A stretch of DNA of 25,423 nt, taken from Atractiella rhizophila (Eukaryota). Within the stretch, counting starts at the first letter, position 1; each line of letters opens with the position of its first letter. The position numbers were made by a program, and so were the translations under genes. The stretch is taken from contig MU271258.1 in NCBI GenBank assembly GCA_021432655.1, positions 91,774 to 117,196 of the forward strand, read 5' to 3'. Under the pieces are notes generated by a model. That model saw only the letters and a program-made list of their open reading frames with translations, did not search any database and was not told the DNA's origin. Below are positions 2,097-25,423 of this stretch, one piece after another.

Positions 2097-2098
2097 GA

Positions 2099-2108: not shown

Positions 2109-2298
2109 CTCTACCTTTCAGAACAGCAAAACTTAAAAAGTATTGGAGGTTTGGGGAGATATGGAAACGTGTGAATCGCCGACGAGCGAAGAATGCATCT
2201 TGCACTTAGAAAGAATGTTCCAAACTCTACACCTCACAACAGAAAAACAGTTCAAAAAACTCGAACAAGACCTCATAACAAGTTTCAACCAATAAAAT

Positions 2299-3450: not shown

Positions 3451-3693
3451 GATGGCGGTGGATGAAAGAAGTGTCCCCATTGCCGACTTGCAATTCATTT
3501 ATGTCGTCTAAAATCACTTCCAACAAAACGCCGCCCAGCACAGTATTCCCCTCTTCTGAACAAGACTCCCCATTCCCGAAATTGTGTTTTCCTTCCTGGA
3601 GACAGAGATGCGCAGAAGTCGCAAAAATGTACGACAAAGTCCATTTACGCTCAACAACAGCATCCCTTGTCAGTTCGAAGACGAAGCTCAGAA

Positions 3694-3819
3694 TGTTGGA
3701 TTAGGTGTTATATTTTGTGGTCTTGTGTTGTGTGGTCAGCCTAGGGAGCAGTTTAGGCGGTCATCATCTTTGACCACCAATCTCTGTCCCCTAGCTCCAT
3801 CCAGCATCAGATTCTCTCA
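3694..3819 (+). mobile_element. Solo Copia LTR-B (internally deleted, 126 bp) inserted in Gypsy pol, TSD CAGAA
   Basis: TGTTGGATTAGG...ATTCTCTCA ends match 14946-15166. CAGAA lies at 3689-3693 and 3820-3824. Confidence 0.92.
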
Positions 3820-6800
3820 CAGAACCGCATTCCATCATCCACATTCCCATCGCCGACACGCCACATCGGCGCTCGTTGACAACGCGGCAACCACTTCTTT
3901 TATTTCTCCAAAACTTGTTTCTGCATACAACCTACCCGTCACTCAACTCCCTTCCCCAATGCCCGTTTACAATATCGACGGATCCCTCAATCAAGGGGGT
4001 TCCATCCACTCTGTCGCTTATTTACCCATTTCGATCGCCGCCCATCACGAAGTTTGGCAATTCGCGGTGGCGGAGTTGGGGACGGTCGACATGATTCTGG
4101 GTCATGACTGGCTAAGACACCACAACCCAGAGATCAACTGGGACTAAGGGGAAGTCGAATTCTCTCGTTGCCCTACCAGTTGCAATGCAGATGACGTATC
4201 TATCACTCGCGAACACTTCCCGTCATCGTCTACCTCAATACGAGCCGCTATGACAAAATCGCAGAAACTGGCAAAAGACACAGCGGCGATGAGACCAAAA
4301 AATGTTGTCGAAATACCAACGCAAATCGCCGATTTTGCAGACATTTTCGACAACAAAAAATTCAAAACTTCACTTCCCCCTCAACGACCTTGGGACCACA
4401 CGATCAACCTCATACCGGAAACCAGACCATATGCAGGTCCTGTCTACCCCTTGAAAAGGGACGAACAAGCGGCGCTCGACCAATTCATTGACGCTGAACT
4501 GAGCGCCGGTCGTATATGTCCTAGCACAGGTAAACATGGAGCTTCTGTTTTTTTTTCACGCACCAAATGACTCCTCCGAACTTCGCCCCCTTTTCGATTA
4601 TTGGAAGCTGAATGAAGCCACAGTCAAAGACAAGACCCCACTCCCCATTCAAGCTGACCTCTTTTTCATGGTTTCCGGTAAGAAGTTTTTCAGCAAGATT
4701 GATCTGAGGAAAGGATTCAACAACGTTCGTATCAAGGAAGGAGACGAACACAAAGCGGCATTTCGCACAAATCGAGGACTTTTCGAACCATTGGTGATGT
4801 ATTTCGGCCTCTGCAACTCACCAGGGACTTTTCAAGCTTTCCTGAACTCTATTTTCCGCGCGATGATCGCCACTGCGTTCATCTTCATATACATCGACGA
4901 TATCCTGATTGCGACAGAGACAGAAGAAGAACACTGGGAACGCGTCGGACAAGTTTGTCAAATTTTGCGCGAAAATGGGCTTTATATTAACTTACAGAAA
5001 TGTGTTTGGTGTCAAAGCGAAGTAGAGTATCTAGGATTGATCATTACCAGCAGTGGGATTGAACCGGATCCAGTAAAGGTTGCAGGAGTGATGGATTGGC
5101 CAGAACCAAAAAAACATGAAGGAGGTCCAAATGTTCCTCTGTTTCGCTAATTTTTATCGCCGCTTTTTGCGATAGATTCAGTCACATCGCAAGACCTTTA
5201 TATGAACTGACCAAAAAGGAGGTTTCCTGGATCTGGGGGGTAGATGAACAATGTTCGTTCGTCGCTTTGAAACAGCTCATGACTTTGGCACACGTTTTGG
5301 CACATCCCGAACAAATAGGACGGTTTTTGCTCGAAGCCGACGCGTCAAATTTCGTGACGGGTGCCGTTTTGTCACCAATGAAGCAGGATGGGAAGTTTCA
5401 CCCGATCGGTTTCGTGTCAAATTCGCTAGACACTGCCCAGAGGAACTACGACACCTACGACAAAGAAATGCTCGCGATTATGTGCGGACTGCAAGAATGG
5501 AGACACCTTCTCCAAGGTACTGATGAGCCATTTCTGATCTTGATCGATCATAAAAATCTTGAGTATTTCAGAATTCCACAAAAGTTGAATCGGTGACAAG
5601 CGCGCTGGATCACGGATCTTGCATCCTTCAACTTCACTCTTTTACACCGTCCTAGACGAAACTCCGCAAAACCAGATGCGCTCAGTCGGCGGCCGGATCA
5701 TAAACCGGCGACTTGAGACAACTCCGACGTAGTATTACTCCCAGAGCCTTTTTTCAACATGGATTGTATCACCATCAACGCGACGGGAGCGCGGTTGCAC
5801 TCACAAGACAAATGTCGGAGTTGAGTATCCTGGAACGTGTCAAAAAAGTGCCTGAATGGGAAGAACAAGTAGTCAAGGCCTTGAGAGAGATCCTAGAAGA
5901 ACCGGTGGATGCAATTCGCCGACGAGAGTGGTAAGAAGTCGATGGTGCTGTCTATTTTCGTGGAAAACTCTACATTCCCCGCGATGACGAAATTCGCCGC
6001 TCAATTTTGCAAGACCTGCACGATTCGCAAATCGCTGGTCATCCAGGTGTAAAATCGACGGCGGCTGTCGTGAAAAGGTACTACTGATGGCCAGGTTTGG
6101 CGCATTATGTTCGCCGCTATATTGGCGCCTGTCACACTTGCCACAGAACAAAAAACTTTCCTTCCCCACCTGTCGGGTTTTTGCAACCAAATGACATTCC
6201 CACGCCTCGCTGGCAAATTGTCAGCATGGACTTGGTTGGACCACTCCCAGAATCTGGGGGGTTCGACACGATTGTTGTCATAGTTGACGGACTCTCAAAA
6301 CGCACCTATCCCATCCCCACCCATTTGACAATGGATGCAGAGGGCCTTGTAAGACTTTTTCGCAATCACATATGGAAGCTACATGGACTTTTTGATGTCG
6401 CAATTTTCGATTGGGGAAAAGAGTTTGTGTCTAAATTCACATCCGCGCTTTTTCACCTATTGGGTATCAAAGGCTCACCATCGACAGCCTATCATCCACA
6501 AAGTGGTGGCCAGACTGAACGTATGAACCAAGAAGTTGAGCAATATTTGCGTATTTTCTGCAATCACCTTCAAGATAATTGGGTAGAAGGACTTCCCAAC
6601 GCAGAATTTGCGCTCAACAATCGCGTTAGTTCGGCGACGGGCGTAACTCCATTTTCACTCAATTGTGGTCAACATCCCCGCATGGCTTTTGAACCCATCT
6701 CCGACGAGGACATTCCCGCGGCGGCGCAATTCATCAAAAAGATGCAAATCGCCGACCGGGAAGCACACATGGCACTCGAGCAAGCAGCAGATCTCATGGC

Positions 6801-7395
6801 AAAACATTATGACAGAAAATGCGCACCGGCGCCCGAATATCGCGTCAGCGATTTCGTGTGGTTGAGCGCGAAAAGCATCAAATCGACGAGACCTGTCAAA
6901 AAGTTGGACGACAAATGGCATGGCCCCTTTCGCGTTTTGCAAGTTTTGGGTCCCCAAACTTGAGTTGCCATCCTCATGGAAGATACATCCAGTGTTCCAT
7001 GTGGGCCTAATACGAAAAGTCAACGAAGACGACATCCCTGGCAGAGTCCAGTTGCCCAAACCACCTCTGGAATTGGTGAATGGAATTGAAGAATGGGAAG
7101 TAGAAAAAATTGTTGATGGGAAATGGTTCGGTACCCGAAATAGAGTTTTCAAATATCACGTTCGATACAAAGGGTATTCACTATCTGAGGACGAGTGGAT
7201 CAACATTGCAGATTTAGAAAATTTGCAGGATGCTATAAAAGATCATCACACTGCACCCCCCCACACACCCTCTTGCAGTTGATCCTGATTCTATACCAAA
7301 CTCCGCCAAAAATCGCCCAAATGCGCGTTTTCGTAACCTTCGACGAAAACGTGCTGAAGGGTCTTCCTCACTTTAAGGGGTCCAACACCCCTATA

Positions 7396-7597
7396 TGAAA
7401 GGATCTAAGGCTAGGAGTGGTTGGTGGTCAATAATAATCACATTAGAGAAGTATAGAGAGACATACCTAGGAGTGGTTGGTGGTCAATAATGAGCACCAA
7501 CACACTCCTAGGCAGAACTAAACTACATAGTGATGACTCATACGAGTCATAAGAGTCATAAGAGGCAGATGACCAAAACAACACACTACAACTAACA
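7396..7597 (-). repeat. Copia LTR-A, 3' LTR of a minus-strand element
   Basis: Reverse complement reads TGTTAGTTGTAG...GATCCTTTCA and aligns with 9499-9688. Preceded in element sense by a PPT and the RNaseH end. Confidence 0.9.
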
Positions 7598-7609: not shown

Positions 7610-7800
7610 CAGCTGTCTCTTGATGCTCCCACCAAATCCAGAGAATCTCCCACCGAATTCATACAATGTATACTCGATATAAAGCAGAAAGCATATTAGT
7701 TTTGCAATGAAAAGAAGGGGGAAAGTCCTCGTACCGCTTAAAGCGGTGTCTTATAACCCCACAGAGGAGGAAAGGAATTTTATTGCGCCCCATAACTGCC

Positions 7801-8799
7801 TCAGACACTTGGGTAGGGGCGCAAACCCATCATAACTTGAAACTTGTCCACGCTGGCGACTGGAAGTGCCTTGGTGAGGAGGTCCGCTGGCATGTTGACC
7901 CCTGGACAGAAGACTGGACTGATCTTGCCCATCTCAACAACATCCCTGAGCCAATAAAAGCGAAGGTCCAGGTGTTTCATTCGACCATGGTGCTCAGGGT
8001 TCTTGGATACCTGTAGAGCGCTGCTGCTGTCTGTGAAGAGAGGAGTAGGACCTTGAGGAGCGAAGCCAATCTCTTCTAAAAGATTCCTTAGCCAGACGAC
8101 TTCTTGGCCAGCTGAGACTCCTGAGACATATTCCGCTTCCGTAGTAGAAAGAGCAACGAGGGATTGTAGTTTGCTGCTCCAACTGACCGCTCCATTGCCT
8201 ATCTTGAGGAGATAGCCTCCCGTAGAACGTCCAGTATCCTTGCACCCAGCAAAATCTGCATCGCAGAAGGCGTGAAAAGGTTGCTTGAGGTCAAAACCAG
8301 TTGCAGAATACTCAATTCCTAAGTTCTGAGTGCCTTTGAGGTATCGTAGAAGATGCTTGGCCGCTTCCCAGTGCTTCTTTCCAGGATTAGAGAGGTACTT
8401 TCCAAGTACAGAGACTGCATGAGCGATATCTGGACGAGTGGATATGGCCAAGTACATCATGGAGCCAACAACGTTGCTGTAAGGGATTGTGCGCATTTCT
8501 TCCTGTTCTTCCTTTGTCTGGGGGCAGTCCTGCTTGCTGAGACCGTGCCCAACGTTGAGAGGAGTGAGGACAGGGTTGCAATCATCCATCTGTTGGCGTT
8601 CTAGGAGGTCCTTAACATACTGTTCTTGATCCAACCACATCATTCTTCGCTTTCTATCTCTCCTAATACGAACCCCAAGTAGGAATTCCGTTGGTCCAAG
8701 ATCTCTGAGTTTGAATCGCTTCCCCAACTCCCTCTTGAAGTCCTCTACAGCACCCTTTGACGTGCTAGCGATCGTAATATCATCCACAAAGACCGGGAC
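7801..8799 (-). pseudogene. pol: Ty1/Copia RT C-terminal part plus RNase H, 5'-truncated
   Basis: PVFVDDITIA, LRDLG, TRPDIAHAV, FCDADFAG, VALSTTEAEY, KHLDLRFYWLRD, PADLLTK, natural stop at 7801. Confidence 0.95.
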
Positions 8800-9249: not shown

Positions 9250-9498
9250 TGACCAGCTGCTCCTGGCTTTACCAGCCCGAAGCGATAGGCCCGCCGTCTT
9301 GGTCTTGTGAAAAACTAGCAATGGTTTATAGTCTTCCTTTACAAAAGGATTGGATGACTTGTCCCAGGTCGTATACTTGTTGACCAGGTGAGCAACTGAT
9401 AAGTCGTCACGGTAAAAGATCAATGAAGGTGAATCATCCAGCCAATACCAGTTCACAATAGGATGTTCTGATGATTTGGTCAGCTCCTTGGCACGCCA
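9250..9498 (-). pseudogene. Fragment of an unknown gene (copy 1), interrupted by the Copia-A insertion; continues at 16826-16918 and in reversed block 16919-18319
   Basis: Near-identical to 23954-24066 plus 24560-24695. Open minus-strand frame (WRAKELTKSSEHPIVNWYWLDDSPSLIFYRDDLSVAHLVNKYTTWDK...). Confidence 0.6.
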
Positions 9499-9688
9499 TG
9501 TTAGTTGTAGTGTGTTGTTTTGGTCATCTGCCTCTTATGACTCATATGAGTCATCACTATGTAGTTTAGTTTTGCCTAGGAGTGTTGGTGCTCATTATTG
9601 ACCACCAACGACTCCTAGGTATGTCTCTCTATACTTCATCAATGCCTCATTATTGACCACCAACTACTCCTAGCCTTAGATCCTTACA
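9499..9688 (+). repeat. Copia LTR-A, 5' LTR (190 bp)
   Basis: TGTTAG...CCTTACA termini, internal duplicated CTCATTATTGACCACCAAC unit, directly followed by a TGG-type PBS. Confidence 0.92.
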
Positions 9689-9701: not shown

Positions 9702-10192
9702 TGGTGGCTAGGATTACACCCATCACCTTCCCCCTCCTCCAGACCACATTTTCACCCCTCCTGCACTCAAATTTCGCTCAATTTCGATGATCAAGACAGA
9801 TCTGTGATCCTCAGACCTTCCTTTACTGCCTTAGAAGGTGTCTGCTTCCTCAAGAATCAAGAAAAATCGAAACCTATCACCTTACCACCCACCACCTGCC
9901 TCAAAACGCACTTTGCCACCCTGGACTCAAACTTCGACGAATTTGGACGTTATAGGGCTTATTTTGATCGTGAAACACTGCGCTACAACTTTACTAGGAA
10001 CCATCTTGGTCACAATAAGCGAAAATTTCGAGATAGCCACTCCATCACCTCCTTCATACCCCCAAAACACATTTTCCGACTTTTTGAAGTCAGATCTGGT
10101 CTGATCTGGACAATTTTATCGCCATTGGATTCACAATAGGCCATTTTACTATCCTACAACAGATCACCTTGATCAGAAGAGTCAAAATTTCG

Positions 10193-10293
10193 AATAATGA
10201 GCACCAACACTCCTAGGCAAAACTAAACTACATAGTGATGACTCATATGAGTCATAAGAGGCAGATGACCAAAACAACACACTACAACTAACA
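10193..10293 (-). repeat. Inverted first half of LTR-A
   Basis: Reverse complement of 9499-9599; ends at the N gap. Confidence 0.9.
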
Positions 10294-10318
10294 NNNNNNN
10301 NNNNNNNNNNNNNNNNNN
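10294..10318. other. Assembly gap, 25 N
   Basis: Direct count. Confidence 1.
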
Positions 10319-13300
10319 ATGTTGTACCAAAGCTATCCTAAACTTCTTAACCACCACACCCCAGTAACTACTTCAACGGGGACATAGTTATTCGGTCAGT
10401 CAGGGTCGAGAGACCGCTGATTACCGTAGTAGATGGCGACGTATCGACCAGAGGGGTCTCTTAAGACTGGGAAGGGGTAGATGAACTCAGAAGGAAACGT
10501 AGAAGGTCGAAGGGTATGAAGCAGGACATGAACAGATCAAGCTAGGATAACGCAGGTTACCCACAAAGACCTGTTACCCTGTGCTTCACCGGGATAGGAC
10601 ACCGTCATCAACGTGAGTCCAACGTTTTCTTACACTCAAGGTGGAGAAGGGGGTGGAGGTCTGGTGTAGAAAGTGCGGGAGGACGTGAGTTTACAACGAC
10701 GAGTTACGGACTAAACGGTAAAGTTACTGTCTCTACCGTAGGAGTCTGGAAGGAATGACGGAATCTAGCTCATCTTACGAACGAATTAGCTAACCTCTAG
10801 TTACCTCTAGTATTCCCACTAGAAGACCTGGTGGGTGATAGGACCCGGAGTTTTGCGTGACTCTCGGTTCCTGAGTTTGAAGCTGCTTAAACCTGCAATA
10901 TCCCGAATTAAAACTAGCACTTTGTGACGCGATCAGCGAAGATCCTTGGTCGAACCAGTGTTATTCGCTTTTAAAAGACCTCCCGTTCCTCCCAGTAGTG
11001 GAGGAAGTTTGGGGGTTTTGCGAAGAAAAGCTAAAAAACTTCAGTCTAGACCAGACTAGACCTGTTAAAATAGCGGTAACCTAAGTGTTATCCGATAAGA
11101 TGATAGGATGTTGTCTAGTGGAACTAGTCTTCTCAGTTTTAAAGCTTTAAACGGTGGTGAGGTGTCAGTAGTAGTGTAGTTGGGGATAGTGGAAAGACGT
11201 AGTGTGGTCCCCTAGAATCCTGAAGTTGGTGTCCCAGATCCTCCTACAGACCCTACCTTTACCGAGTAATTACTCGTGCAATCTCTAAACGACCTGTCTT
11301 GTCGGAACGCGTCGTTTACCACAGTTATACGGTGTTTGTTCGGATCCGCCTATCGTTTGATGATCACGTTGAAGGGTGTACAGAGGGTTAGCGGTAACCC
11401 AGTCTTGGATAGTGTTCTTGTAATATTGATTGTCCCATCGTTCACCTCTTCACGGAACCTCATTTTACCCTCAACCCTCGAGCTAGAAACTTCGGTTTAC
11501 CCCCTCTTCTTCTGGTGATGGTAATGGTAGAGACTACAGGATGTACAGGGTTTGAGACCTTGTTGGACCACAGTCAGAAGTCCGAGTGGCAGATCTTCCC
11601 TTACTCCGAGAGGTAGTTCGTGTTGTTCGAAGAGAAGAAGGTCCCAGTTTTTGAGACGGAATGACGGTGACACCTGATGTTCTTACCATCGTACCGACCT
11701 TATGAGTTACCCTTGTCGGAGGGATCCGAGGTCTTAAACGACCTTTACGTAGATTTGTCGTGTTCCAACGAATAGTTTGCGTGTCTTCTGATCCTGTAGT
11801 ATTAAGACTCCTATGGTTCGCAGACTTCTCGTTGCTTGGACAGTTACAAGCGTACTGAGAGGGTCGATCGTCCTGCTAGGTCTGTGATAAACGCTCGGTA
11901 CGGATCGAGCCTTCGTCGTTTCCCAGGAGTTGTATCGGTCGATTGACTGATTGGTCTTGGCCTCTGATAGGAATTCCTTCTTCTTGGAGTTCTGTTTCAG
12001 TCCCTTTATGAAGTTCGTATTTGTTATATTTCTCTTCACCATAGTCTCAGTTTACCTTCCCGATGGGAGTAGCTTCTTCGTTGTTACTTCTTACCCACTA
12101 GATGTCTTACGAGTCCTGCGATAGTTCTTCGATTTAGACTCATTCCGGGGTCTTGCGAAGTTCTGGAAGTTCTTAACCTATCTCTTACAGTGACCCTTCT
12201 TTTAGTTCTTCAAATCTGTCCTGTTCCTTCCGCGAATAAGGAGGTTCCTTAAACTAGTTATAGAATTCCGGACACCATAGGTCGCACTTGTCTGATAGTC
12301 CTTAAGAGGAGTAGTCTTGCCGTCTCGTCTTGCTCGGTTATCCTGCTAAGTCCTCTGATACCAGCGGTACAAACTTCTTAGACCTGTAGTGGATGAAAGT
12401 GACGGGTAGATATCGTAGTCGCCAGCATGTGTAAGCGTTGTCTAGAGGGAGTACGGGCGCTAGTTGGTGCGATAAGGGGGTGTGCTTGAGTGTCCTTAAT
12501 GAGGTTGGTCGATTTGTAAGTCTTAGTAACCTGCGTGCCGGATGCATGTTCAGGTGTTCCTGCTTTCCGGTGTGTGGAATCCTAGAGTATGATCTTTTAC
12601 GAGTCATGTAGAATAAAGGCTAATAAGGGAAATAACGAAAGGACAAGATCGATAGGTATACAAAGTTCTTTGTATACAATGTTAAATACCGTCACGGAAA
12701 TATATACATATATATGTAACTCGACATCACCACCACTGGAATCTCATAAGAGTATCCAAATGGAGGTGATGTCCAAGCGGAAGAGTACGGTATGATAAGA
12801 GAATCCAAATGGAGGTGATGTCTGCGCAGTGGGTAGCCGCTGGCGTATATCACAACCGGGATTGTGAACGTCTTGTTCGGTTATCCTACTAAGTCCTCTG
12901 ATACAAATATACCAGTCACGGAAACAATTACAAGTCAGTAAATATATCAAAAAGGAGGAAGTCTCTACCAAGCTACCAGTAGTAGAATTTGGTGGTTGTA
13001 CGTAGGAGACCGAGGTAGGTCGTACTCTAGGAGTATACGGACCGTAGTGGGTTTTCCCCTTAGATTCATCGTAATATCACACTATAACGTGATCGGATGA
13101 TATACTTTTACTTTATGGAACCGATGATCCGAAATCAGCTAATTAAACTCGAACAGACCACAAGATTACAACAAAAACAGTGTTTCACCTCGAGAATCGA
13201 CGAAATATTAAAGAAGTAGAACGGTCTATAGTGAATAGTTAAGAATAACTAAGATTGGAATGTACCATGCTTACCGTGACTAATTGTAACACACACTAAA

Positions 13301-13665
13301 AAAATTGGGCCATATGTAAAGGTCTAGGTCGAAGGGCGAAATGGTAATGGTAATCCAAAGAAGAAGACAGACAGGTGAAAAGACAAGAAGGAAGTACTCT
13401 GGAAACATGATAAAATGCCACACTACGAAAAAGAAAGATCACAGGAGGTAAGTAGACCGTAATGAGATTGGTAATGAGTAGGAGTAGAAAGAACGAGTTC
13501 AAACATGTGTCACCACGTGTAATCCAGAGGATCCTGCAAATTGTGAAAGTTCACGAGAAACTTTACGTCCAGATGGCCAACAAAGTGTGGTTATGAAGAA
13601 CGTTGAATCAGGTCCACATTCTTTACATGACATCAAAGCACTATTTTCGTTTGGTCGTCCTTGTA
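10319..13665. other. Reversed-not-complemented block 1 (assembly artefact) hiding Copia Gag knuckle/PR, a Copia-A leader/PR/INT copy, a Gypsy LTR 3' half and a degenerate LTR-B
   Basis: Read backwards, 10620 to 10319 gives CNYCHRIG-HFVSHC...TDWLIDTGATSSMTPHHQFFKSYRNHVV, which runs into PIRVANGE near 13673. 12208-12267 is the mirror image of 16381-16440. The plain complement of 10740-11145 matches 9808-10194, and the plain complement of 12601-12865 matches LTR 1882-2096. The right boundary is uncertain by about 10 nt. Confidence 0.92.
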
Positions 13666-15215
13666 CGTTGTCCCCATCAGAGTTGCGAATGGAGAGGTGG
13701 TTTGGTCTGCTGGGATTGGAGATGTGGTGATTGAAGCGAAATTGGAGGGTCAAAAGTCGAAGCAAGTCACCATTCACAATGTCCTTCATGTCCCCAAGCT
13801 CTGCAGCAATCTCCTATCCGTTTTCAAGCTCACTATCTTCAAGAACATGACCGTCACCATCACTGGGAACAAAGTACGCTTCCTCAAGGACGGAAATCAA
13901 TGTTTTACAGCCACAGTCGACCACAGGAGAGGAAGCATGAGTGCCATCATCGATGGAAGAACACTCATTACCTCAGAGTTCGTTGCACATGTCTCCACCA
14001 CCCCCCTGAACGCTTCCCTGTGGCATAGAAGACTTGCCCACTTGAATCTTGAAGATATAAAGCGAATGCTGAAGAGAGGACTTGTGAAAGGAATGATTCT
14101 GGACTCAGAAGACGCTCCTGACCCTATTTGTGAGCCCTGCATAGCTGGGAAGCAACATAGGATCTACAACAAGGCTGCAGAGAATAGGGAGACGGAAATT
14201 TTAGGAAGGATCAGCTCAGATCTTCATGGACCACTCCCAGTTGCTTCAAGAGAAGGATTTCGCTATTGGGTAGCGTTCATAGACGAGGCAACAAACCACT
14301 GGACGATTGCTTTCCTCAGGAAGAAGTCAGAAGCACCTCAACGCTTTAAGGAGTACAAAGCTATGATGGAGACATTGACTGGAAGGAAAATCAAGAGATT
14401 CAGGGAAGACAAAGAAGGCGCCTACTCCTCAACAGATTTCGATGAATATCTTCGAAATTGTGGCATCCAGCGTGAGCAAACGATTAGGAACTCTCCTCAT
14501 CAAAATGGGAGAGCAGAGAGAGCAAATAGGACGATTCAGGAGGGTATGGTGGCAATACTGGAGGAATCTGGTTTGCCACTATTCCTCTGGCCTCATCTTG
14601 CTTCGGCTGTCGTTCACATCAGGAACAGATCCCCCTCTTCCTCCATCAATCACTCCATTCCCCACACGAAATTGACAGGGCAACTGGTCAATATTTCGCG
14701 TTTCAGAGCTAGATGTCCAAGTTCAGAAGGACGAAGAAGGCACAGTCTGGCATCCCATACACGCAGATGTGCCTTTATAGGTTACTCTACCAGAGCTAAA
14801 GGCTGGGATTTCTGGGATCCAGTGTCTAAGAAGGTCTACACCCGAGATATTGCGAAATTTGATGAGAGGGAGATGCTCTGCAAAGTCAGGAGGAAGGAAA
14901 ACGCGTTGGAACCGCCTCAGGGACTACTGGACAAGTGGAAAGAATTGTTGGATTAGGTGTTATATTTTGTGGTCTTGTGTTGTGTGGTCAGCCACCTTTG
15001 TTTTGTTTGCTTCATTTCGGAGTTTTAGCCCCCTAGGGGGCAGGTTAGGCGGTCATCATCTTTGACCACCAATCTCTGTCCCCTAGGTATGTGTTTCCCT
15101 ATCAATGTCATCATCTTTGACCACCAATCTCTGTCCCCTAGCTCCATCCAGCATCAGATTCTCTCAAGAATGTCAGGATCAGGTGGGAGAAGAAAAGAGA
15201 GATGCTCCTGCCGTC
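13661..15215 (+). pseudogene. pol: Copia protease tail, GAG-pre-integrase and integrase core, interrupted by a solo LTR-B
   Basis: NVLHVPKLCSNLLSV, LWHRRLAH...CEPCIAGKQ, SSDLHGP, QNGRAERANRT, CAFIGYS. The frame resumes after the LTR as CQDQVGEE. Small deletion near 14710. Confidence 0.93.
14946..15166 (+). mobile_element. Solo Copia LTR-B (221 bp), TSD AGAAT
   Basis: TGTTGGA...CTCTCA termini. AGAAT lies at 14941-14945 and 15167-15171. Confidence 0.93.
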
Positions 15216-15219
15216 CTTT

Positions 15220-16808
15220 TGGATTTTAGGGCTTGCCATCGCTCTTGAATATGACTGAGGGACCTCTACTCCTGTTGCTGCACTCATGGCATGCTCTGTG
15301 ACAAGCATATAGCCATATTCCATCGCCTCTGGCTCAGTGAGTACGTCACATTCCTTTACCAACATCCCAAGCTCGTCTGTTGACCCTTCGTCGTTGTTTT
15401 GAGGCGCTTCTGGGGTCCTAAATGTGTCGACAGGTCGTCCTCTACTCGTGGAATAAATTCTTGAAGGCCTGGTGACAGGGGGAGGTGTTGAAGCTGCTGG
15501 AGGAGGTCGATCTGGTGTTGTTGGGTGGATCTGGAGTGGATCTGGAGACTCTGAGAATCTAGGCATGTGAACTCCTGTCCAAGGATCTCTCTGCATGGTG
15601 TACTGACGAGGTGGTGTCCTAGGGCGTTCAGGCAGCAGCTGTATTGGGTCTGGAGACGGCTCTCTTTCTTCTTCTTCTTCTTCTTCTTCGGCCTGAAGGG
15701 GCTGAAATCGATCTGGAGAATGTATTCCAAGTGGTCTGGGTTGGTCCTGAGGTGTAGGTGGTGGTCCTGGCTGTCGAATCCATCCTTCTTCTTCTTCTTC
15801 ATCGTCGTCTAGCGATATCCTGGCTGGAGGAGCGGCTGAAGCATTATTCTGTCCATCTCCCACCTGATCCTGACGCTCCTTCCACTCATCAAGTGGTTCC
15901 TGTGGCTCTTCCAACGTAATCTTCTCCTTCCTCACCTTGCAGAGCATCTCTCTCTCATCAAATCTGGCAACATCTCGAACGTAGACCTTCTTTGCAACAG
16001 GATCCCAGAACTCCCACCCTTTCGCTGCAAGGGAATAGCCTATAAATGCACATTTTCGAGTATGAGATCCTAAGCTGTGTGGCCTTTCATCCTTTTGAAC
16101 TTGAACGTAGGCAGTGCATCCAATGATTCTGAATCTTGAGATGGTTGGAGTAAGTCCAGTGAGTTTCGTGTGGGGAATAGCATGGTTGATCGAAGCTGAG
16201 GGAGATCTGTTGCGAATGTGGACGACTGCTGAAGCGATAGATGGCCAGAGAAAGAGCGGAAGCCCAGATTCTTCAAACACGGCGACCATAGTCTCCTGAA
16301 TCGTCCTATTGGCTCGTTCTGCTCTGCCATTCTGATGAGGAGAATTCCTGATAGTCTGTTCACGCTGGATGTCACAGGCCTTAAGATATTGATCAAATTC
16401 CTTGGAGGAATAAGCGCCTTCCTTGTCCTCTCTAAACTTCTTGACCTTCTTCCCAGTAACATTCTCCACCCAATTCTTGAAGGTCTTGAAGAGTTCTGGG
16501 GCCTCTGATTTTTTCTTAAGGAAGGCAATTGTGCAATGATTTGTTGCTTCGTCGATGAAGGTGACCCAATATCGATAACCTTCTCTGGAAGTGACTGGAA
16601 GAGGTCCATGTAGGTCTGAGCTGATTCTACCCAATATCTTCTTCTCCCTAGTCGTTGCTGACTTGTTGAAGACCCTGTGCTGCTTCCCAGCTAGGCATGG
16701 CTCGCAAATAGGGTCTGGATCATCCTCCAAGTCCAAAATCATCCCATTCACAAGTTCCTTCCTCTTCAGATGCTTGATGTCCTCATAATTAAGATGTCCA
16801 AGTCTTCT
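15220..16808 (-). pseudogene. pol: Copia integrase plus acidic/Pro-rich linker, truncated at both ends
   Basis: Open frame from RRLGHLNYEDIK through CEPCLAGKQ, SSDLHGP, GRAERANRT to VPQSYSRAMASP (start of the pre-RT motif). Confidence 0.93.
15666..15689. repeat. (TTC)8 microsatellite encoding poly-Glu in the Copia linker
   Basis: Direct count; matches EEEEEEEE in ORF 15138-16751. Confidence 0.9.
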
Positions 16809-16918
16809 AGCCTTAGATCCTTACACGCCACTGATCAAATAGCTGGATGCGTGCCTTCGTACACTCTAAGTATAAATCTTGTAGCCAGAGGAAGTTCACC
16901 ATTCTGCATTCACCCTCA

Positions 16919-18319
16919 AAACAACCTTTATCACAGATTTCTAATCAAATAAAACAAAACAAGACACTCCTCTTAGAGAGGTGCCAGTACTAGTTAGGGA
17001 ACTACAGGATGTATTACTTTTACCTTGCTAGTAGGCTTCCCGTACGTCGAGTCATAGTGTACAACCTCACTTCATACGCCCGAGTACGAAGCTTCGTGGG
17101 ACGGGCGACAGACAGATGAGGCGGTACTCGTTTCAACTAAAGGACACCACACGGCGGTCCCTCCGTAAGTCTTTCTGGGGACTATAGTTGTAGAGTTTGT
17201 AGAGTTGCTCCTCGTATTCCACACGTACGAAGAAACTGAGTCTGTTTTGTGCGGTGAGTGAACCGACTGACTATATTAGAGTAAACGGTTTAAACTACGT
17301 GAGGTGTAAGGAAAGAGGACACATCTTTTGTAATGTTGGTTATTCGCTAAGAGTCAGTGGGACTGTCTGTAGGTCAGTCTGGAACATACCGAGTACGTCG
17401 GCGAGGAAGATACCGACTCCTCGGAGGTCTTCTATCGACCTTCTGTCATAGGTCACTTAATCTGCTGTACAGGTTGTAGTATAATCGAAGACACTTCCAG
17501 TATCTCGAGTTCGGATTTCACTCCGCAACAAAACTCAAAAACGGTCCCATTGATGTATGTATGGACACCTTACCCTATTGTTCTTCCGAAACTGTCGAAA
17601 GAAACTCTCCGACATATACCATTCGTTAAAAGGAATACGGAGACACTTAACCTACTCTTTTTCGTAGGTCCTCGAGGGACCTCTTTATACCTAGGGGTCA
17701 CTGTTACTCCACAGACCAAGAGTTCTTCCTCCACGACTCACTGTTATAGTGACTAATTTGAGACCAATTTGAACTACGGCAAGAGTACGGTTATAAAAAT
17801 CTACGTGAGTGGTTCCTGTGTAAATGTAAACGACTTGAACTTCGAAGTAATCTCAACTTCTTATTTCGGTTACTTGCTTTCCGTGTCGTATCTTATCGGG
17901 TTCTTCCTCGCCGGACAGGCAGTCGAGCTGGAATGTTGAAATGAACCCCAAATACGTAGTCGTTAGTGTACAGTCTAGTCCACAGTCTCTTCAGGAAGAA
18001 TACCTACGAAATGTACGCACGTCCTGATAAGTTCAGACACGGCATTCTCAGTCTCTTCTTGAAGTTCCTGAACCACGTTTCAGAGCGCAACAACCGGTGG
18101 CGACTTCTCCGACTTGAACCAAAAGAGTAGCGAAAACTGGTAGAAGGTTTAGACTCTAAAAGTGTCCAGGGGGAAAGACTTCTGGACGGGTCTTACGAGG
18201 TCGTATAAGGTGACCATTGAGATAAACGGGTACAGACTATCTTGGTAGATCTGGTAAACGGTGTATAAAGTCTTACACTCAGTACTGAGTTCAAACCCTC
18301 CGGTTTAATAATCTTTTCC
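16919..18319. other. Reversed-not-complemented block 2 (assembly artefact) hiding the upstream part of the unknown pseudogene
   Basis: 17680-18319 is the mirror image of 24784-25423. The flank ...CACCCTCA (16918) continues in the paralogue as CCTTTTCTAATAA, which is exactly this block read backwards from 18319. Confidence 0.96.
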
Positions 18320-18344
18320 NNNNNNNNNNNNNNNNNNNNNNNNN
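18320..18344. other. Assembly gap, 25 N
   Basis: Direct count. Confidence 1.
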
Positions 18345-20258
18345 CTTCCTCCTGTGTCAAAATAACGCGGGGTATTGACGGAGTATGTGAACCCATCCCC
18401 GCGTCTGGGTAGTAAAGAGCTTAAATGTCTGAGGTCGTTGGCCATTCGGAACCACTCCTCCAGACGTCCGTATCTGAGCGGTCCCGTCTTCTGACCCCAC
18501 TACTCAGGTCTAAGATGACACAGGGACTCGGTCATCTTCGCTTCTAGGTTCACGAAGTACGCAGGTACCACGAGTCCTAAGAACGACCTGAACGTTTCGT
18601 GTCTACGACAGGCAGTTTTCACAACAGCTTGGAAAACCTCGCTTCGGTTAGAGAACGTCTTCTGAAGACTCGGTTTGGTGGAGAACGGGACGACTATGGG
18701 GACTCTACATGAGACGGAGGCACCAACTCTCACGGTGGTCTCTGACGTTGAACGATGAGGTTGACTTGACGAGGAGGAGGCTGTCAATTCTCCATAGGAG
18801 GTCACTGGCCGGTCATAGGAACGTTGGGCGTTTCAGACGTAGTGTTATACGGAACTTACCAACTCTCTATAGTTTTAGACTCCGTCTCATGAGCTACGTG
18901 TACAGGACTCACGGGAACTCTATCGCGGTACTCCACAAACCGTCGAAGGGTCACGGAGAACGGTCTTAACCTGTTCTTAAAAGGCTCCTGTCTCTGTCAC
19001 ACCCGCTACAGTCCCGCACATCGTTGACGTTCCATGTACTCTCTCGACTGCTGTACCGACATCCCTTACCAAGCGTAGACAAGAAGTAGAAGGAACCAGA
19101 CTCCTGTCAGAACGAAGCTATTTGGCACCGGTTGTGACTCCCCTCACTCGTGTCCGAACGTCGATAGGTAGAAGACAGCTTTCTCTTCCAGGAATTGCAT
19201 AACGAGGACTAGGTTGGTGTAGAAGAAGACGAAGGATAGGGCGGATTAGGAGTGAGGTTCGTTTTTAAGGCGGCGAGGTTCCAGGGAGTCGAACTTAGAG
19301 AAAGGATTGAGGAAGAACTTGAGGAGGTGTCGCGAAGACCTGCACGGTCGTTAGCAATATAGCAGGTGTTTCTGACCCTGCTAGTGGAACTGAAGTGGTA
19401 AGCTCATCTAGATCTCTGACGACAGTGTGAACTGGAACCACTTCGGGTACCTGTGCTCGAGGGACAGGTCAAAGAAGACGGTAACTGTAGGAGGAACGGA
19501 CCACGGTATCTAACGAAACTCCTCAAACTCTCGCATAAGACCTCCTGGAACTCCCACTGGAAGACCGACGAACCATATCTGAAGTCGCAGGTAAAGAGGC
19601 AAGTTTTTGCGTCAACTCTACAGGTGACTAAGGTCAAGGTACAGGTCCTGTGTCCGTTCGCTTTCTTACCAAGACTCTCACCGGGTAAACTGACACCTAC
19701 GTTTCCACAGCTTCTTCAGCTTAGGTCCTGCGACCCTCTTCGGGAACTACTGCTTAGATCGGAATATTGCGAGTTAACTCGGCAGTCTGAAGAAGAACTA
19801 TCGTTTGTGGGGTAGACCTAGGTTACTGGAAACGAGGGAAACCACCAAAATGGTCGTGGGTTGAGAACAACAGGTTCACGCGAACTTGGAGGAAGTGGCA
19901 GCGGAGTACGGTAACAAAGCGGAGATCTCAGAAACACCGAAGACGTATGCAGTATCCCTACACAAGGGCACGAGGATGTCGGTACCGTACGAGTCATTGG
20001 AGGTATTTTGGCGTGAGGTTGTGAAGTCCAAGGCATTATTAGGTTGTTAACATTCCTAGATTCCGATCCTCAACCACCAGTTATTACTCGTGTAATCTCT
20101 TCATAGCTCTCTGTAGGGATCCTCACCCAACCACCAGTTATTACTCGTGGTTGTGAGGATCCGTCTTGGTTTGATGTATCACTACTGAGTATACTCAGTA
20201 TTCTCAGTATTCACCGTCTACTGGTTTTGTTGTGTGATGTTGATTGTAGGTCTTGAGC
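18345..20258. other. Reversed-not-complemented block 3 (assembly artefact) hiding an LTR-A (20050-20247) and a full Copia RT-RNaseH
   Basis: Read backwards it gives LTR-A, then PMTYAEA...HLDNKSWVLV...IERYKARFVIKGFSQRPGFDFFDTFA...VDISTAFLNG...PVFVDD...YCDADFAG...STTEAEY...GLRPYPSV*. The 3' UTR then continues directly into TGTGGGGGTTATAAG at 20259. Confidence 0.95.
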
Positions 20259-20610
20259 TGTGGGGGTTATAAGACGCCGCTTTAAGCGGTACGAGGATCT
20301 CTCTACTGGTTTTAGACAGTCAACTAATCTTTTTGCCGTGCCGTTTCATGCTGTCCTTATTCGGTGGGAGCTTTATTGGCTGGCTATTTTTGATGGTTCT
20401 TGGATTTGGTGGGAGCTTCAAGAGGCGGCTGCCCAGGTGGGAGTGTTGGATTAGGTGTTATATTTCATGGTGTTGTGTTTGTGTGGTCAGCCACCTCTGT
20501 TTTGTTTGCTTCACTTCATAATTTTAGCCCCCTAGGGGGCAGTTTAGGCGGTCATCATCTTTGACCACCAATCCCTGTCCTCTAGCTCTATCCAGCGTCT
20601 ATTTCTCTCA
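20259..20610 (+). mobile_element. Copia-B 3' UTR, PPT (20432-20443) and 3' LTR-B (20444-20610)
   Basis: UTR blocks match the reverse complement of 7598-7764. CCCAGGTGGGAG is followed by TGTTGGATTAGG...TTCTCTCA. Confidence 0.9.
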
Positions 20611-20851
20611 TACTGTATGACAGAATCATCTTTCTTGGGATGTTGGAAGACTCCTGTAACAATATCTATTTCCACCTTGTGGATTTTCACAAATATCTCG
20701 CTGGACGAACTATTGTCACCATGTACCCTGACATCGTTGATTTCTGGTCTTGGGATCAGTATATTGAGAAGGTAGATGGATGGTTCTTTAGTAATTTCAC
20801 TAGGCCCATCCCTTGCGTAAGTCTTATTACAGAAAGTAGCAATATTGATTA

Positions 20852-21508
20852 ATGATTACTTTTAAGCGCCGTCGACGCGACAATCAGATAGAGAGAACCG
20901 ATGTGGGTGCAAATAATCAATCTCCTCCTTCAATCGAAATAATCGATGAACTCGAATCGGTTGTTGTTGCACAATCACTCAGACCTGATACTTCAACTTT
21001 AGACATTGAAGACGCTATCTTTGACACCGCTAGCTCAATTACCCTTCCCTCTTTGGAAACCATGTCCACTGGTTTGCAAGATGGTGCAGTTTATTGGCCT
21101 CCAAAGAAGAGCCCAGCCAAGATGTTCGCTACTACAGAGATTGTAAGAGCTCTTTCGGCCCCAATCATCACTGGAAGCCTTCAAGGAGGATATTACGGAA
21201 TTATTTCCAATAGTCAACCTCCTTCTCCTCTTCCTTGGCAAGCACCCATCCAAGTCGAATATGCCAGTCTGAGAGACTTCAGCCCTGCCTTCACCAAAGC
21301 CTTCCTCATCTATCGCATCATGATGTGCAAGATTGACACGTCGGAACCCAATGGTTGGATGATCTTAGCAGTTCTCAACTATGATCTGGAGACAGAAAGA
21401 CACCACCTAATTGGAAGACCTGTCTATTGGCTAACCCTCAAGGACTTACACAGGCAACCTGCTTGTAGTAAACTACTTGCAGCTATGAAAGCGACTAGGA
21501 AGTTTTGA
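20852..21508 (+). CDS. Orphan 218-aa ORF of unknown function, possible divergent chromo-like C-terminus
   Basis: Long stop-free ORF in normal-orientation, non-LTR sequence. The upstream 70-aa ORF (20640-20852) overlaps it by TAATG, so both may be pieces of one truncated gene. No family recognised with confidence. Confidence 0.45.
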   Translation: MITFKRRRRDNQIERTDVGANNQSPPSIEIIDELESVVVAQSLRPDTSTLDIEDAIFDTASSITLPSLETMSTGLQDGAVYWPPKKSPAKMFATTEIVRALSAPIITGSLQGGYYGIISNSQPPSPLPWQAPIQVEYASLRDFSPAFTKAFLIYRIMMCKIDTSEPNGWMILAVLNYDLETERHHLIGRPVYWLTLKDLHRQPACSKLLAAMKATRKF

Positions 21509-22313: not shown

Positions 22314-22519
22314 TATATTTTGTGGTCTTGTGTTGTGTGGTCAGCCACCTTTGTTGTGTTTGCTTCATTTCGGAGTTTTAGCCCCCTAGGGGGCAGTTTA
22401 GGCGGTCATCACCTTTGACCACCAATCTCTGTCCCCTAAGTATGTGTTTCCTTATCAATGTCATCATCTTTGACCATCAATCTCTGTCCCCTAGCTCCAT
22501 CCAGCATCAGATTCTCTCA
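22314..22519 (+). repeat. Copia LTR-B lacking its first about 16 nt
   Basis: Aligns to 14962-15166 and ends ATTCTCTCA, directly fused to RT sequence. Confidence 0.88.
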
Positions 22520-23953
22520 TGAAGGAGATTCAATCTCACTTGGACAACAAGAGTTGGATTCTGGTCAAACCGCCTATAAGGAGCAAGAATCGTTGGTTCT
22601 CGATGGGGGTGTTTGCGGTTAAGAAGAAGTCAAATGGTTCTATTGAGCGCTTCAAGGGCAGATTCATCATCAAGGGGTTCTCTCAACGCCCTGGATTCGA
22701 TTACTTTGATACTTTCGCATCGACGGTCAAATGGGCGACACTTAGGACGATTCTTTCACTCACCTGTGTCCTGGATATGGAGTTAGAGTCTGTGGACATC
22801 TCCACAACGTTCCTAAATGGCGAAATGGATGCAGAAGTCTATGCCAAGCAGCCAGAAGGTCACTGTCAAGGTCCCCCAGAATATGCTCTCAAACTCCCCA
22901 AAGCAATCTACGGCACCAGGCAAGGAGGAAGGCAGTGGCAGAAGAAATTTGACAAGGAAATCACATCCATGGGCTTTATCAAGATCAAGAGTGATGCCAG
23001 TGTTTGGATTTACTCGAAGGAGGACATCAAAGTACTTGTCCCAGTCTTTGTGGATGACATTACTATCGGCTAGCACATCCAAGGGTGCTGTGGAGAACTT
23101 CAAGAGGGAGTTAGGGAAGCGATTTAAGCTCAGAGACCTTGGACCAACGGAATTCCTACTTGGGGTGTGCATTAGGAGGGATAGGAAGCGAAGAATGATG
23201 TGGTTGGATCAAGAACAGTATGTCAAGGATCTTCTGGAACGCCAACAGATGGACGATTGCAACCCTGTCCTTACTCCTCTCAATGTTGGACACGGTCTCA
23301 GCAAACAGGACTGCCCTCAGACAAAGGAAGAACAGGAAGAAACGTGCACAATCCCTTACAGCAATGTAGTAGGCTCTATGGTGTACTTAGCCATCTCCAC
23401 CCGTCCAGATATCGCTCACACAGTCTCTATACTTGGAAAGTACCTTTCTAATCCTGGAAAGAAACACTGGGAAGCAGCTAAGCATCTTCTACAATACCTC
23501 AAAGACACTCAGAACTTAGGAATCAAGTATTCTGCAGCTGGTTTCGACCTCAAGCAACCTTTTCACGCCTTCTGCGATGCAGATTTTGCTGGGTGCAAGG
23601 ATACTGGACCTGGAGGCTATCTCCTCAAGATAGGCAACGGAGCAGTCAGTTGGAGCAGCAAACTACAATCCCCTCGTTGCCCTTTCTACTACCGAAGCAG
23701 AATATGTCTCAGGAGTCTCAGCTGGTCAAGAAGTCGTCTGGCTAAGGAATCTTTTAGAAGAAATTGGCTTCGCTCCTCAAGGTCCTACAGCTCTCTTCAC
23801 AGATAGCAGCAGCACTCTACAGGTATCCAAGAACCCTGAGCACCACAATTGAATGAAACACCTGGACCTTCACTTTTATTGGCTCAGAGATGTTATTGAG
23901 ATGGGCAAGATCAGTGCCCGGGTGTCAGTATGCCAGCAGACCTCCTCACCAAG
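22520..23953 (+). pseudogene. pol: Copia RT plus RNase H, frameshifted and 3'-truncated
   Basis: KEIQSHLDNKSWILV, IERFKGRFIIKGFSQRPG, VDISTTFLNG, PVFVDD, TRPDIAH, FCDADFAG. Frameshifts near 23069 and 23672 and a stop near 23850. Confidence 0.93.
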
Positions 23954-25423
23954 TGACCAGCTGCTCCTGACTTTACCAGCCCGAAGCGATAGGCCCGCCG
24001 TCTTGGTCTTGTGAAAAACTAGCAATGGTTTATAGTCTTCCTTTACAAAAGGATTGGATGACTTGTTGTTAGGGCTGACACTATGTGCGGTCGCCGATAG
24101 GCGATGCGTCTGTAGTGGAGGTAAACCTAAGTGGATAGTATGGCATGAGAAGACTAACCTGTAGTGGAGGTAAACCTAAGAGAATACTCTGAGGTCACCA
24201 CCACTACATCTCGATGTATATATACATAAGTAAAAGCACTGCCATAAACTGTAACATACAATGCTTGAAACATGTAAGATAGCTAGATCAGGAAAGCAAC
24301 AAAGGGAATAAGCGGAAATAAGGCATGTTGAACAGTACAAGTGAGAAAGGATAATAAGGCAATAATGGAGACGGTGCAGACCGGCGAAATGTATAAGGTT
24401 TGCTGAGCGGCGATTCGTGTGAGATAGGAAAGCGGCGATCAGCACGTACGTGAGCAAAGCGGCGATGGGGGGGCACGTGATCCCATAACGTCGTGAAGTA
24501 GGTCACGTGACTTCGTGTGGTGCATTTCGATAATGCGTAGGGGCAAGCCTGACACTTGTCCCAGGTCGTATACTTGTTGACTAGGTGAGCAACTGATAAG
24601 TCATCACGGTAAAAGATCAACGAAGGTGAATCGTCCAGCTAATACCAGTTCACAATAGGATGTTCTGATGATTTGGTCAGCTCCTTGGCACGCCACTGAT
24701 CAAATAGCTGGATGCGTGCCTTCGTACACTCTAAGTATAAATCTTGTAGCCAGAGGAAGTTCACCATTCTGCATTCACCCTCACCTTTTCTAATAATTTG
24801 GCCTCCCAAACTTGAGTCATGACTCACATTCTGAAATATGTGGCAAATGGTCTAGATGGTTCTATCAGACATGGGCAAATAGAGTTACCAGTGGAATATG
24901 CTGGAACATTCTGGGCAGGTCTTCAGAAAGGGGGACCCGTGAAAATCTCAGATTTGGAAGATGGTCAAAAGCATTGAGAAAACCAAGTTCAGCCTCTTCA
25001 GCAGTGGCCAACAACGTGAGACTTTGCACCAAGTCCTTGAAGTTCTTCTCCAACTCTTACGGCACGGACTTGAATAGTCCTGCACGCATGCAAAGCATCC
25101 ATAAGAAAGACTTCTCTGACGCCTGATCTGACATGTGATTGCTGATGCATAAACCCCAAGTAAAGTTGTAAGGTCGAGCTGACGGACAGGCCGCTCCGTC
25201 TTGGGCTATTCTATGCTGTGCCTTTCATTCATTGGCTTTATTCTTCAACTCTAATGAAGCTCCAAGTTCAGCAAATGTAAATGTGTCCTTGGCGAGTGCA
25301 TCTAAAAATATTGGCATGAGAACGGCATCAAGTTTAACCAGAGTTTAATCAGTGATATTGTCACTCAGCACCTCCTTCTTGAGAACCAGACACCTCATTG
25401 TCACTGGGGATCCATATTTCTCC
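23954..25423 (-). pseudogene. Intron-containing pseudogene of unknown family (copy 2), interrupted by the solo Gypsy LTR
   Basis: One minus-strand frame runs from the window end (EKYGSPVTMRCLVLKKEV...) with three isolated stops. A GTAACT...TTTCAG intron (24888-24831, 58 nt) splices in frame into NVSHDSSLGGQIIRK..., and the frame continues across the LTR insertion. Confidence 0.6.
24067..24554 (-). mobile_element. Solo Gypsy LTR (488 bp), TSD CTTGT
   Basis: Reverse complement aligns end to end with 1660-2096. CTTGT lies at 24062-24066 and 24555-24559. Empty site GA-CTTGT-CCCAGG near 9356-9368. Confidence 0.95.

Follow-up and report, generated by a model that had tools for sequence, protein, structure and literature searches.

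The window (the whole stretch of 25,423 nt that was analysed, from Atractiella rhizophila contig MU271258.1) contains fragments of Ty1/copia retrotransposons and two runs of exactly 25 N. Three blocks next to these gaps (10319–13664, 16919–18319 and 18345 to about 20259) matched window DNA only if they were string-reversed, that is, read backwards without complementation; together they comprised 6,661 nt, about a quarter of the window (Table 1). The junction of block 1 with the pol fragment that follows it sits within the protease-domain region.

Table 1. Gaps, mirror blocks, normal partners and flanks in the window
Feature	Position	Strand	Remarks
Normal copia reverse transcriptase (RT) copy	7765–8799	−	In-window partner of block 3
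Assembly gap	10294–10318		Exactly 25 N
Block 1, reversed without complementing	10319–13664		3,346 nt; gap-side end belongs at ~13665
Block 1 part; reversed, the stretch before the protease–integrase region of other copia copies	10319–10872		78–90 %
Block 1 part; reversed, copia 5′ region in opposite orientation	10646–11941		Complement of 9727–10194; 84 % to scaffold C336; indel-rich
Block 1 part; reversed, broken copia integrase	11784–12604		tblastn E 2e-75 to ORF 15141–16820; three stops in hit
Block 1 part mirroring dispersed non-coding repeats	12611–13033		Repeats at 24067–24322 and 3759–3816
Block 1 far end, no partner detected in either sense	13034–13664		CG/GC mirror-like
Normal contig, Ty1/copia pol fragment (Pol_BBD, gag_pre-integrs, rve, SH3_retrovirus)	13665–14956	+	
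Normal contig, second copia integrase fragment	15138–16820	−	Opposite strand to the 13665–14956 fragment
Normal flank of block 2	16815–16918	+	97 % copy of 24679–24783
Block 2, reversed	16919–18319		1,401 nt; gap-side end 18319 belongs after 16918
Assembly gap	18320–18344		Exactly 25 N; mirror block on either side
Block 3, reversed	18345–20258 (edge 20258–20260)		~1,914 nt; gap-side end 18345 belongs before ~20260
Block 3 part; reversed, broken copia RT region	18446–19906		Three frames, stops; E to 3e-92 versus RVT_2-bearing ORFs
Block 3 part mirroring a 190-nt repeat	20050–20248		Repeat at 9498–9688
Normal copia RT copy	22495–23890	+	In-window partner of block 3
Normal paralogue spanning the block 2 junction	24679–25423	+	Stops at scaffold end

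A reading of this DNA from its letters (the sequence-only reading) had described the blocks as mirror images or plain complements of sequence elsewhere in the window, and a BLASTN search of the string-reversed window against the window confirmed this. The strongest match was between 17680–18319 and the mirror of 24784–25423 (97.5 %, 640 nt, no gaps, 1,083 bits). Block 3 gave matches at 18522–19896 (mirror of 22520–23890; 75 %, 1,380 nt), 18347–19380 (plain complement of 7765–8799; 74 %) and 20050–20247 (complement of 7396–7597; 93 %), and block 1 at 11784–12600 (mirror of 16051–16808; 80 %), 10646–11147 (complement of 9727–10194; 81 %) and 12611–12865 (mirror of 24067–24322; 89 %). No alignment between blocks 2 and 3, which flank the same gap, was found by this search. 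The CG/GC ratio was 2.14, 2.88 and 1.96 in blocks 1, 2 and 3, respectively, compared with 0.54–0.86 elsewhere in the window; TG/GT, CA/AC and TA/AT were likewise inverted. Markov segmentation called mirror segments at approximately 10.2–13.6 and 16.9–20.3 kb, with edges imprecise by 100–350 nt, so that block limits were taken from the alignments.

The content of the blocks was ordinary. Pfam domains were assigned to the normal ORFs of the window and these ORFs were then compared with the reversed blocks by tblastn; blocks 1 and 3 reversed gave 15 hits, to a broken integrase and a broken reverse transcriptase of Ty1/copia type, whereas the blocks as written gave none. The copia pieces were fragmentary, nested and cut, with stops and changes of frame interrupting them, and nothing new about the copia elements was found. 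The 190-nt repeat mirrored in block 3 is putatively LTR-like, judging by its TG...CA ends. Of reversed block 1, 2,405 of 3,347 nt matched compared loci; its last 631 nt (13034–13664) had no partner in either sense in the window or the compared scaffold regions, and showed 24 CG versus 8 GC and a weak Markov signal. Block 2 (1,401 nt) has a partner within the window for just 640 nt, as the scaffold stops at 25423, and 1,388 nt of it matched scaffold C336 when reversed; the block is a reversed repeat common to 24784–25423 (97.5 %) and C336 (96 %), with no coding assignment. As written, block 2 matched only itself in the genome, and none of the nine ORFs of at least 100 aa in or overlapping the blocks had a Pfam match; the sequence-only reading had warned that such blocks look like orphan DNA.

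The junctions were examined with each block in four orientations. Plain reversal gave 17–21 alignments across the junction for block 1, two for block 2 and 10–28 for block 3 (counts that include overlapping loci), whereas blocks as written, complemented or reverse-complemented gave none. The in-register join that had been claimed for the flipped gap-side ends was thus found for all three blocks, by plain reversal only. The 16918/16919 junction was exact: reversed block 2 with its flank matched 24684–24883 at 197 of 200 letters without gaps, compared with 26 of 100 letters for the junction side of the block as written, and divergence from the 24679–25423 paralogue was alike in the flank (~3 %) and the block (2.5 %). 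The end of block 3 varied between 20258 and 20260 with the copy compared. For block 1 the most probable end is 13664, which implies an overlap of 8 nt; a gap-free alignment placing the join at 13672/13673 was set aside because contigs assembled from sequencing runs track the window back to 13665. Short overlaps at the joins (8 nt at block 1 and ~33 nt at a block on scaffold C156) look like clipped alignment ends.

The run data were Logan contigs of two public runs, from one sample and one study that are possibly the assembly's own source. Contigs of one run (X2) left the window at 20261, where the continuation matched the reversed gap-side end at 28 of 30 letters and the written letters at five of 30, and at 13665, where the corresponding matches were 25 and eight of 30 (all counted by eye); these loose ends stem from a repeat family and are not provably from the window locus. 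Among the contig matches listed, no loose end lay at 16918 and no joint skipped a block exactly. Run-contig depth at 88 % likeness was zero in all 14 bins wholly within the blocks and above zero in the other 16 of 30 bins, in both runs; this agrees with an artefact but proves nothing alone, and was not counted as evidence.

Further mirror copies were found by searching the genome with the sequence as written. Outside the window, the mirror stretch reached an N-gap in 15 of 16 scaffold regions examined, and in the remaining region (scaffold C2) it lay 349 nt from one. The C156 block was 14.8 kb long and showed the same far-end join. When 55 gap sides were tested, 17 had a continuation and 38 did not; 16 of these continuations were located at far edges of mirror blocks (three in the window, 13 elsewhere), no more than 5 nt from separately found edges. 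The seventeenth, left of the gap at 10294, was spurious because normal flanks read backwards match mirror blocks in the same database, and the reversed-match counts of this test were discarded for that reason. In 482 kb of preset stretches (~1 % of the assembly, five gaps), a scan that blocks under a few hundred nucleotides could escape, no mirror segment was called away from gaps, and segments were found at two gaps on scaffold C40 only. Block edges differed at every block and cut inside reading frames. The error is therefore assembly-wide.

Two supporting details of the earlier reading held in part. Uniform 25-N gaps were true of both window gaps; among 28 distinct gaps in the assembly, a sample biased towards mirror-bearing ones, 11 were exactly 25 N, none was shorter and 17 had 248–3,285 N. 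Mirror blocks abutted gaps of both kinds, which is consistent with a filler shortening some gaps and overfilling others. The decoded sequence had also been called indel-rich. This applied to block 1, with 14 small indels in 498 nt versus zero to four between normal copies (the block 1 partners were just 80–90 % alike, so this control was unmatched for divergence), and modestly to block 3 (4.7–6.4 per kb versus 1.8–4.1), but not to the 640 nt of block 2 next to the gap, which had no indels. In block 2, six of the 11 small indels lay more than 1,000 nt from the gap, a weak distal rise; the rise expected in block 3 was absent, the trend being opposite. The missing rise in block 3 and the indel-free part of block 2 count against the explanation that follows.

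With mirror order, exact far-end joins, a tie to N-gaps and ordinary content observed, the three blocks are almost certainly real genomic DNA, from nested and decayed LTR-retrotransposons, that gap-filling software misordered, and not biology. The mis-orientation artefact first proposed from the letters is supported by the four-orientation test, the run-contig loose ends and the assembly-wide gap tie. A gap filler would have extended contig ends into scaffold gaps using long-read consensus, and its pasting step may have performed half a reverse-complement, with an opposite-strand consensus either complemented but left in its order or reversed but left uncomplemented; both would give identical text. 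Each extension would then have its contig-proximal end beside the gap, while its distal end would abut the contig.

Replication and recombination keep 5′–3′ polarity, as do polymerases, recombinases and integrases, and we know of no biological route to kilobase mirror copies. A rival reading is real mirror DNA, with retrotransposons of this genome copied by some unknown parallel-strand or reversed-polarity route; in its favour are the mirror copies on many scaffolds and one paper which, in its available text, claims parallel-direction synthesis in PCR (PMC4304224). It is nevertheless exceedingly improbable: all mirror stretches that could be resolved adjoin an N-gap, with none called elsewhere in the 482 kb; edges vary by block and cut reading frames; the flank past the far end of a block is continued by that block's gap-side end; run contigs pass from the flank into reversed text; and mirror RT copies do not group. 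Grouping was judged by nearest-neighbour identities: the nearest normal copy of the three mirror RT copies was at 87.8, 98.7 and 96.2 %, and the nearest mirror copy at 84.3, 84.3 and 74.7 %. Three of four mirror integrase copies were slightly nearer each other than normal (97.0 versus 96.6, 97.0 versus 95.0 and 91.2 versus 90.7 %), in a set with a single normal copy of that subfamily. A self-spreading family of mirror elements was rejected on the RT result (three of three nearest to a normal copy) and on the differing block edges.

Chance, low-complexity palindromes or ordinary inversions have a virtually nil probability. Sequences do match their own reversals above shuffles, according to the accessible part of one study (PMC11099658), but when the normal DNA of the window (18.8 kb) was reversed and compared with its unreversed original, the best score was 42.8 bits, from a TTC microsatellite, compared with the 1,083 bits observed. 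An inversion was rejected because reverse-complemented blocks gave no junction alignments and an inversion would not flip dinucleotide ratios as these blocks do; complementation in place was dismissed because merely complemented blocks gave none either.

For the misordering by software that we favour, the source was probably long reads, the fault probably a half-done strand flip and the program probably PBJelly, which as the tool is plausible but unproven. PBJelly leaves overfilled gaps as exactly 25 N. The length of the C156 block and the insertion-skewed indels of block 1 fit long reads. As described in the available sections of its paper, PBJelly treats runs of 25 or more N as gaps, adds sequence to their flanks, shortens gaps that it does not close and flags overfilled ones, and errors in PacBio reads tend to be insertions (English et al., 2012; PMC3504050). 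The blocks resemble its output in their one- and two-sided additions, the 25-N threshold, the Ns kept in shortened gaps, the paired non-overlapping extensions and an uneven consensus quality with insertion-skewed errors; they differ in that those sections describe extensions as correctly oriented, with no reversed or complement-only output. The same artefact could have come from a different gap filler, from a patching script written in-house or from the export of a file, as any lost half of a strand flip yields identical text, and the parts available of papers using or benchmarking PBJelly mention overfilling and no mirror sequence (PMC8848313, PMC9635638, PMC7757076, PMC4580222, PMC6240028). 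Such a source is rather unlikely, the smallest gap in our biased sample being 25 N (11 of 28 exactly so), PBJelly's gap threshold, and the one- and two-sided extensions beside shortened gaps matching its described outputs. A literature search found no description of this error, which weighs little since subscription papers, forums, code trackers and supplements lay mostly outside it.

The blocks are a matter of data quality and hold no new biology. About a quarter of the window, and blocks of up to 14.8 kb elsewhere, are hidden from normal homology searches and could pass for orphan DNA in a novelty scan; a string-reversal check is advisable before findings beside N-gaps in this assembly are used. 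It is possible, if doubtful, that a long-read gap filler in wide use, either PBJelly or a pipeline based on it, makes this mistake systematically and that the fault has gone unreported. Backwards blocks of up to 15 kb would then lie beside gaps in many public assemblies, where they would mask genuine genes and repeats, give rise to spurious orphan ORFs and spoil decoys made by reversing genomes; affected assemblies could be found cheaply by a dinucleotide or reversed-BLAST screen.

Blocks 1 and 3 resemble Ty1/copia elements in that, reversed, they match window ORFs with the domains RVT_2, rve, gag_pre-integrs, Pol_BBD and SH3_retrovirus, and differ in that their copies are fragmentary, nested and broken and that block 2 has no coding assignment. 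Parallel-direction PCR (Bhardwaj & Sharma, 2014; PMC4304224) is the sole claimed opposite-polarity route found in the literature search; as far as its available text goes, it is an in vitro claim and leaves the gap tie and the far-end joins unexplained. The reversed-sequence decoys for homology benchmarks treated by Glidden-Handgis & Wheeler (2024; PMC11099658) arise, in the accessible portion of that study, from the same string operation and are taken as homologue-free, but they are deliberate and their excess matches come from short approximate palindromes, whereas the reversal here is accidental, runs over kilobases and lies in the assembly itself; a decoy made by reversing this genome would hold true matches.

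The sequence-only reading had placed three mirror blocks, in which letter order is reversed without complementation, beside 25-N gaps in the window, and these were recovered at the same positions by BLASTN of the string-reversed window and by dinucleotide ratios. With one exception, all long matches of the reversed window to the window touched 10.6–13.0 kb or 17.7–20.2 kb; the exception, a 47-nt self-match (7466–7512/20117–20162), likewise touched block 3. This search of reversed strings, which that reading had proposed, gave matches of up to 1,083 bits (17680–18319 with 24784–25423, 97.5 %, 640 nt, ungapped). When 18.8 kb of normal window DNA was reversed and compared with itself, no match exceeded 42.8 bits, a score reached at a microsatellite. 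CG/GC was 2.0–2.9 inside the blocks and 0.5–0.9 outside, TG/GT and CA/AC were 0.6–0.7 inside and 1.2–1.7 outside, and TA/AT was 1.3–1.8 inside and 0.5–0.8 outside. An inversion was rejected, since it would keep such ratios as they are.

Positions of gaps, mirror blocks and normal elements in the window
Feature	Position (nt)	Remarks
Assembly gaps	10294–10318, 18320–18344	Exactly 25 N each
Mirror blocks 1, 2 and 3	10319–13664, 16919–18319, 18345–~20259	6,661 nt in total
Gypsy-type ORFs	4503–6960	Pfam RVT_1, rve, SH3_Tf2-1; normal DNA
Copia-type ORFs	7804–8799, 13631–14953, 15141–16820, 22495–23803	Pfam RVT_2, rve, gag_pre-integrs, Pol_BBD, SH3_retrovirus; normal DNA
Dispersed repeat carrying a 34–35-nt duplication	3690–3819, 14941–15170, 20441–20611, 22314–22523	Further copies

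Junctions were compared in constructed joins of flank and block, 150 nt from each, made in four orientations and scored by the number of alignments to other scaffolds that ran across the join. Plain reversal gave 17–21 for block 1, two for block 2 and 10–28 for block 3 (counts inflated by overlapping loci), whereas blocks as written, complemented or reverse-complemented gave none. In all three blocks the gap-touching end continues the sequence lying past the block's other end. The join of block 2 was exact at 16918/16919, reversed block plus flank matching 24684–24883 at 197 of 200 letters without gaps, and the edge of block 3 lay at 20258–20260, varying with the copy compared. Block 1 gave a gap-free join at 13672/13673; because contigs from sequencing runs track the window back to 13665, the assembly contig most likely begins there, with the extension duplicating its initial 8 nt.

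These run contigs were Logan contigs of two public DNA runs, from one sample in one study, in which the region was found and from which the assembly itself may have been built. In the loose ends listed, contigs of one run (X2) ended at 20261 (two contigs) and 13665 (four contigs), and none ended at 16918. Compared by eye, the 30-letter overhang at 20261 agreed with the reversed gap-side end of block 3 at 28 of 30 letters, against 5 of 30 for the letters as written, and that at 13665 agreed with reversed block 1 at 25 of 30, against 8 of 30; these contigs are members of a repeat family and need not originate at this locus. Run-contig cover was absent inside the blocks, which was not counted as evidence.

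The content of the blocks was ordinary once reversed. Searches with six window ORFs (tblastn) gave no hits to the blocks as written and 15 to the reversed blocks (best E 3e-92), with none to block 2 in either form. Reversed block 3 comprised a copia reverse transcriptase (RT) region, hit in three frames with internal stops, and an LTR-like repeat. Block 1 was a mosaic in which non-coding repeats accompany copia fragments of either orientation, and no partner for its final 631 nt was found among the DNA compared. Read backwards, 10319–13033 showed oppositely oriented copia pieces overlapping at 10646–10872, reflecting either natural nesting or chimeric local assembly; a 36-nt direct repeat (12326–12361 and 12869–12904) also occurs in this block. 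Reversed block 2 aligned over 1,388 of 1,401 nt to scaffold C336 at 96 %, whereas as written it had no genome match besides itself. None of the nine ORFs of at least 100 aa within or overlapping the blocks had a Pfam match.

The window forms the final 25,423 nt of its scaffold (C79) in an assembly of 51.5 Mb and 1,998 pieces. LTR-retrotransposon pieces crowd it, with Pfam hits in seven of 19 ORFs searched. A Ty3/gypsy pol at 2296–7282 is broken into several ORFs (Pfam RVT_1, rve, Integrase_H2C2, SH3_Tf2-1), and the end of ORF 6866–7282, judged by eye, may be chromodomain-like. Within the dispersed repeat, a 34–35-nt direct duplication, with AG at its end, flanks a spacer starting with GT (15052–15141 and 22405–22493). 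The 101 nt just before the first gap (10193–10293) are a 100 % inverted copy of 9499–9599 in normal letter order, and could be a repeat collapsed at a contig end. A stop-free plus-strand frame of 219 aa at 20849–21508 lacked a Pfam match, and run-contig depth there was far below that of surrounding repeats.

As written, blocks 1 and 3 had 20 and 19 further matches in the assembly, which could at first suggest a real mirror family. Sixteen scaffold regions with such matches were examined together with a control region on C336. The mirror stretch extended to an N-gap in 15 of the 16, that on C2 lying 349 nt from one, and the control had neither gap nor mirror. Continuations were found for 17 of 55 gap sides: the three window blocks, 13 on other scaffolds, all within 5 nt of independently found edges, and one spurious case of normal flank matching mirror copies. 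At the other 38 there was none, owing either to a normal side or to the lack of a homologue among the DNA compared. The longest block found (C156:71313–86137, ~14.8 kb) ended at a 25-N gap, with an overlap of ~33 nt at its join. In 482 kb of preset stretches with five gaps, picked without regard to mirror hits and taken from C10, C40, C120, C300, C400, C500 and the part of C79 beyond the window, mirror segments were called on C40 alone and none away from gaps. Of the two C40 segments, a clear one of 1.8 kb (41788–43613) was separated from a 25-N gap by 26 nt, and a weak one of 1.4 kb lay at a gap of 256 N. The former may hide non-repeat sequence, since the 150 nt on its gap side matched none of the DNA compared. 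At the start of C120, 1–259 had mirror-like composition (score −17, or −5 over 200 nt) and was followed by a 3,285-N gap. All three mirror RT copies were closer to a normal copy than to any other mirror copy; three of four mirror integrase copies were marginally closer to each other, in a set that included just one normal copy of their subfamily. Parallel-direction PCR, claimed in the available text of PMC4304224, leaves the tie to gaps unexplained.

The pattern is real in the sequence file, but is no feature of the organism. Reversed letter order, exact far-end joins, the strict gap tie and ordinary content uphold the proposal of an assembly artefact rather than new biology, and the blocks are almost certainly of this kind. 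A gap filler would have made contig-end extensions from long reads, and the pasting step would have performed half of a reverse-complement on them. The two possible halves, reversal alone or complementation alone of an opposite-strand consensus, yield identical text and are indistinguishable.

The gap-filling tool PBJelly, to which the sequence-only reading had pointed, is probably responsible; it would keep overfilled gaps as 25 N. By its description (PMC3504050, in the portion available), it counts any run of at least 25 N as a gap and extends the flanks, leaves an appropriate number of Ns where a gap is merely reduced, and flags a gap as 'overfilled' when its two extensions lack overlap yet are larger than the gap. 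Blocks 2 and 3 did not align to each other, and this, with the gap sizes, fits that behaviour. Uniform 25-N gaps, as had been claimed, held for both window gaps but not beyond: in a biased sample of 28 gaps, 11 were exactly 25 N, none was shorter and 17 were 248–3,285 N. The indel profile agreed only in part with long-read filling. The claim of indel-rich decoded sequence applied to block 1 (14 small indels, predominantly insertions, in 498 nt versus 0–4 between normal copies, its partners being more diverged) and, modestly, to block 3 (4.7–6.4 per kb versus 1.8–4.1, with no distal rise), but not to block 2 over the 640 nt nearest its gap, where there were none.

No description of mirror blocks beside assembly gaps turned up in a literature search confined to listings of mainly open-access papers. 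Excerpts of PMC8848313, PMC9635638, PMC7757076 and PMC4580222 mention overfilling, and one of PMC6240028 the 25-N default, with no mention of reversed output in these excerpts. The finding adds no biology; it has some use as a caution about this assembly, which would extend to others if the fault sits in a common tool. Reversed sequence is used, in the available part of PMC11099658, as a decoy presumed to be without true homologues, an assumption that mirror blocks would break.
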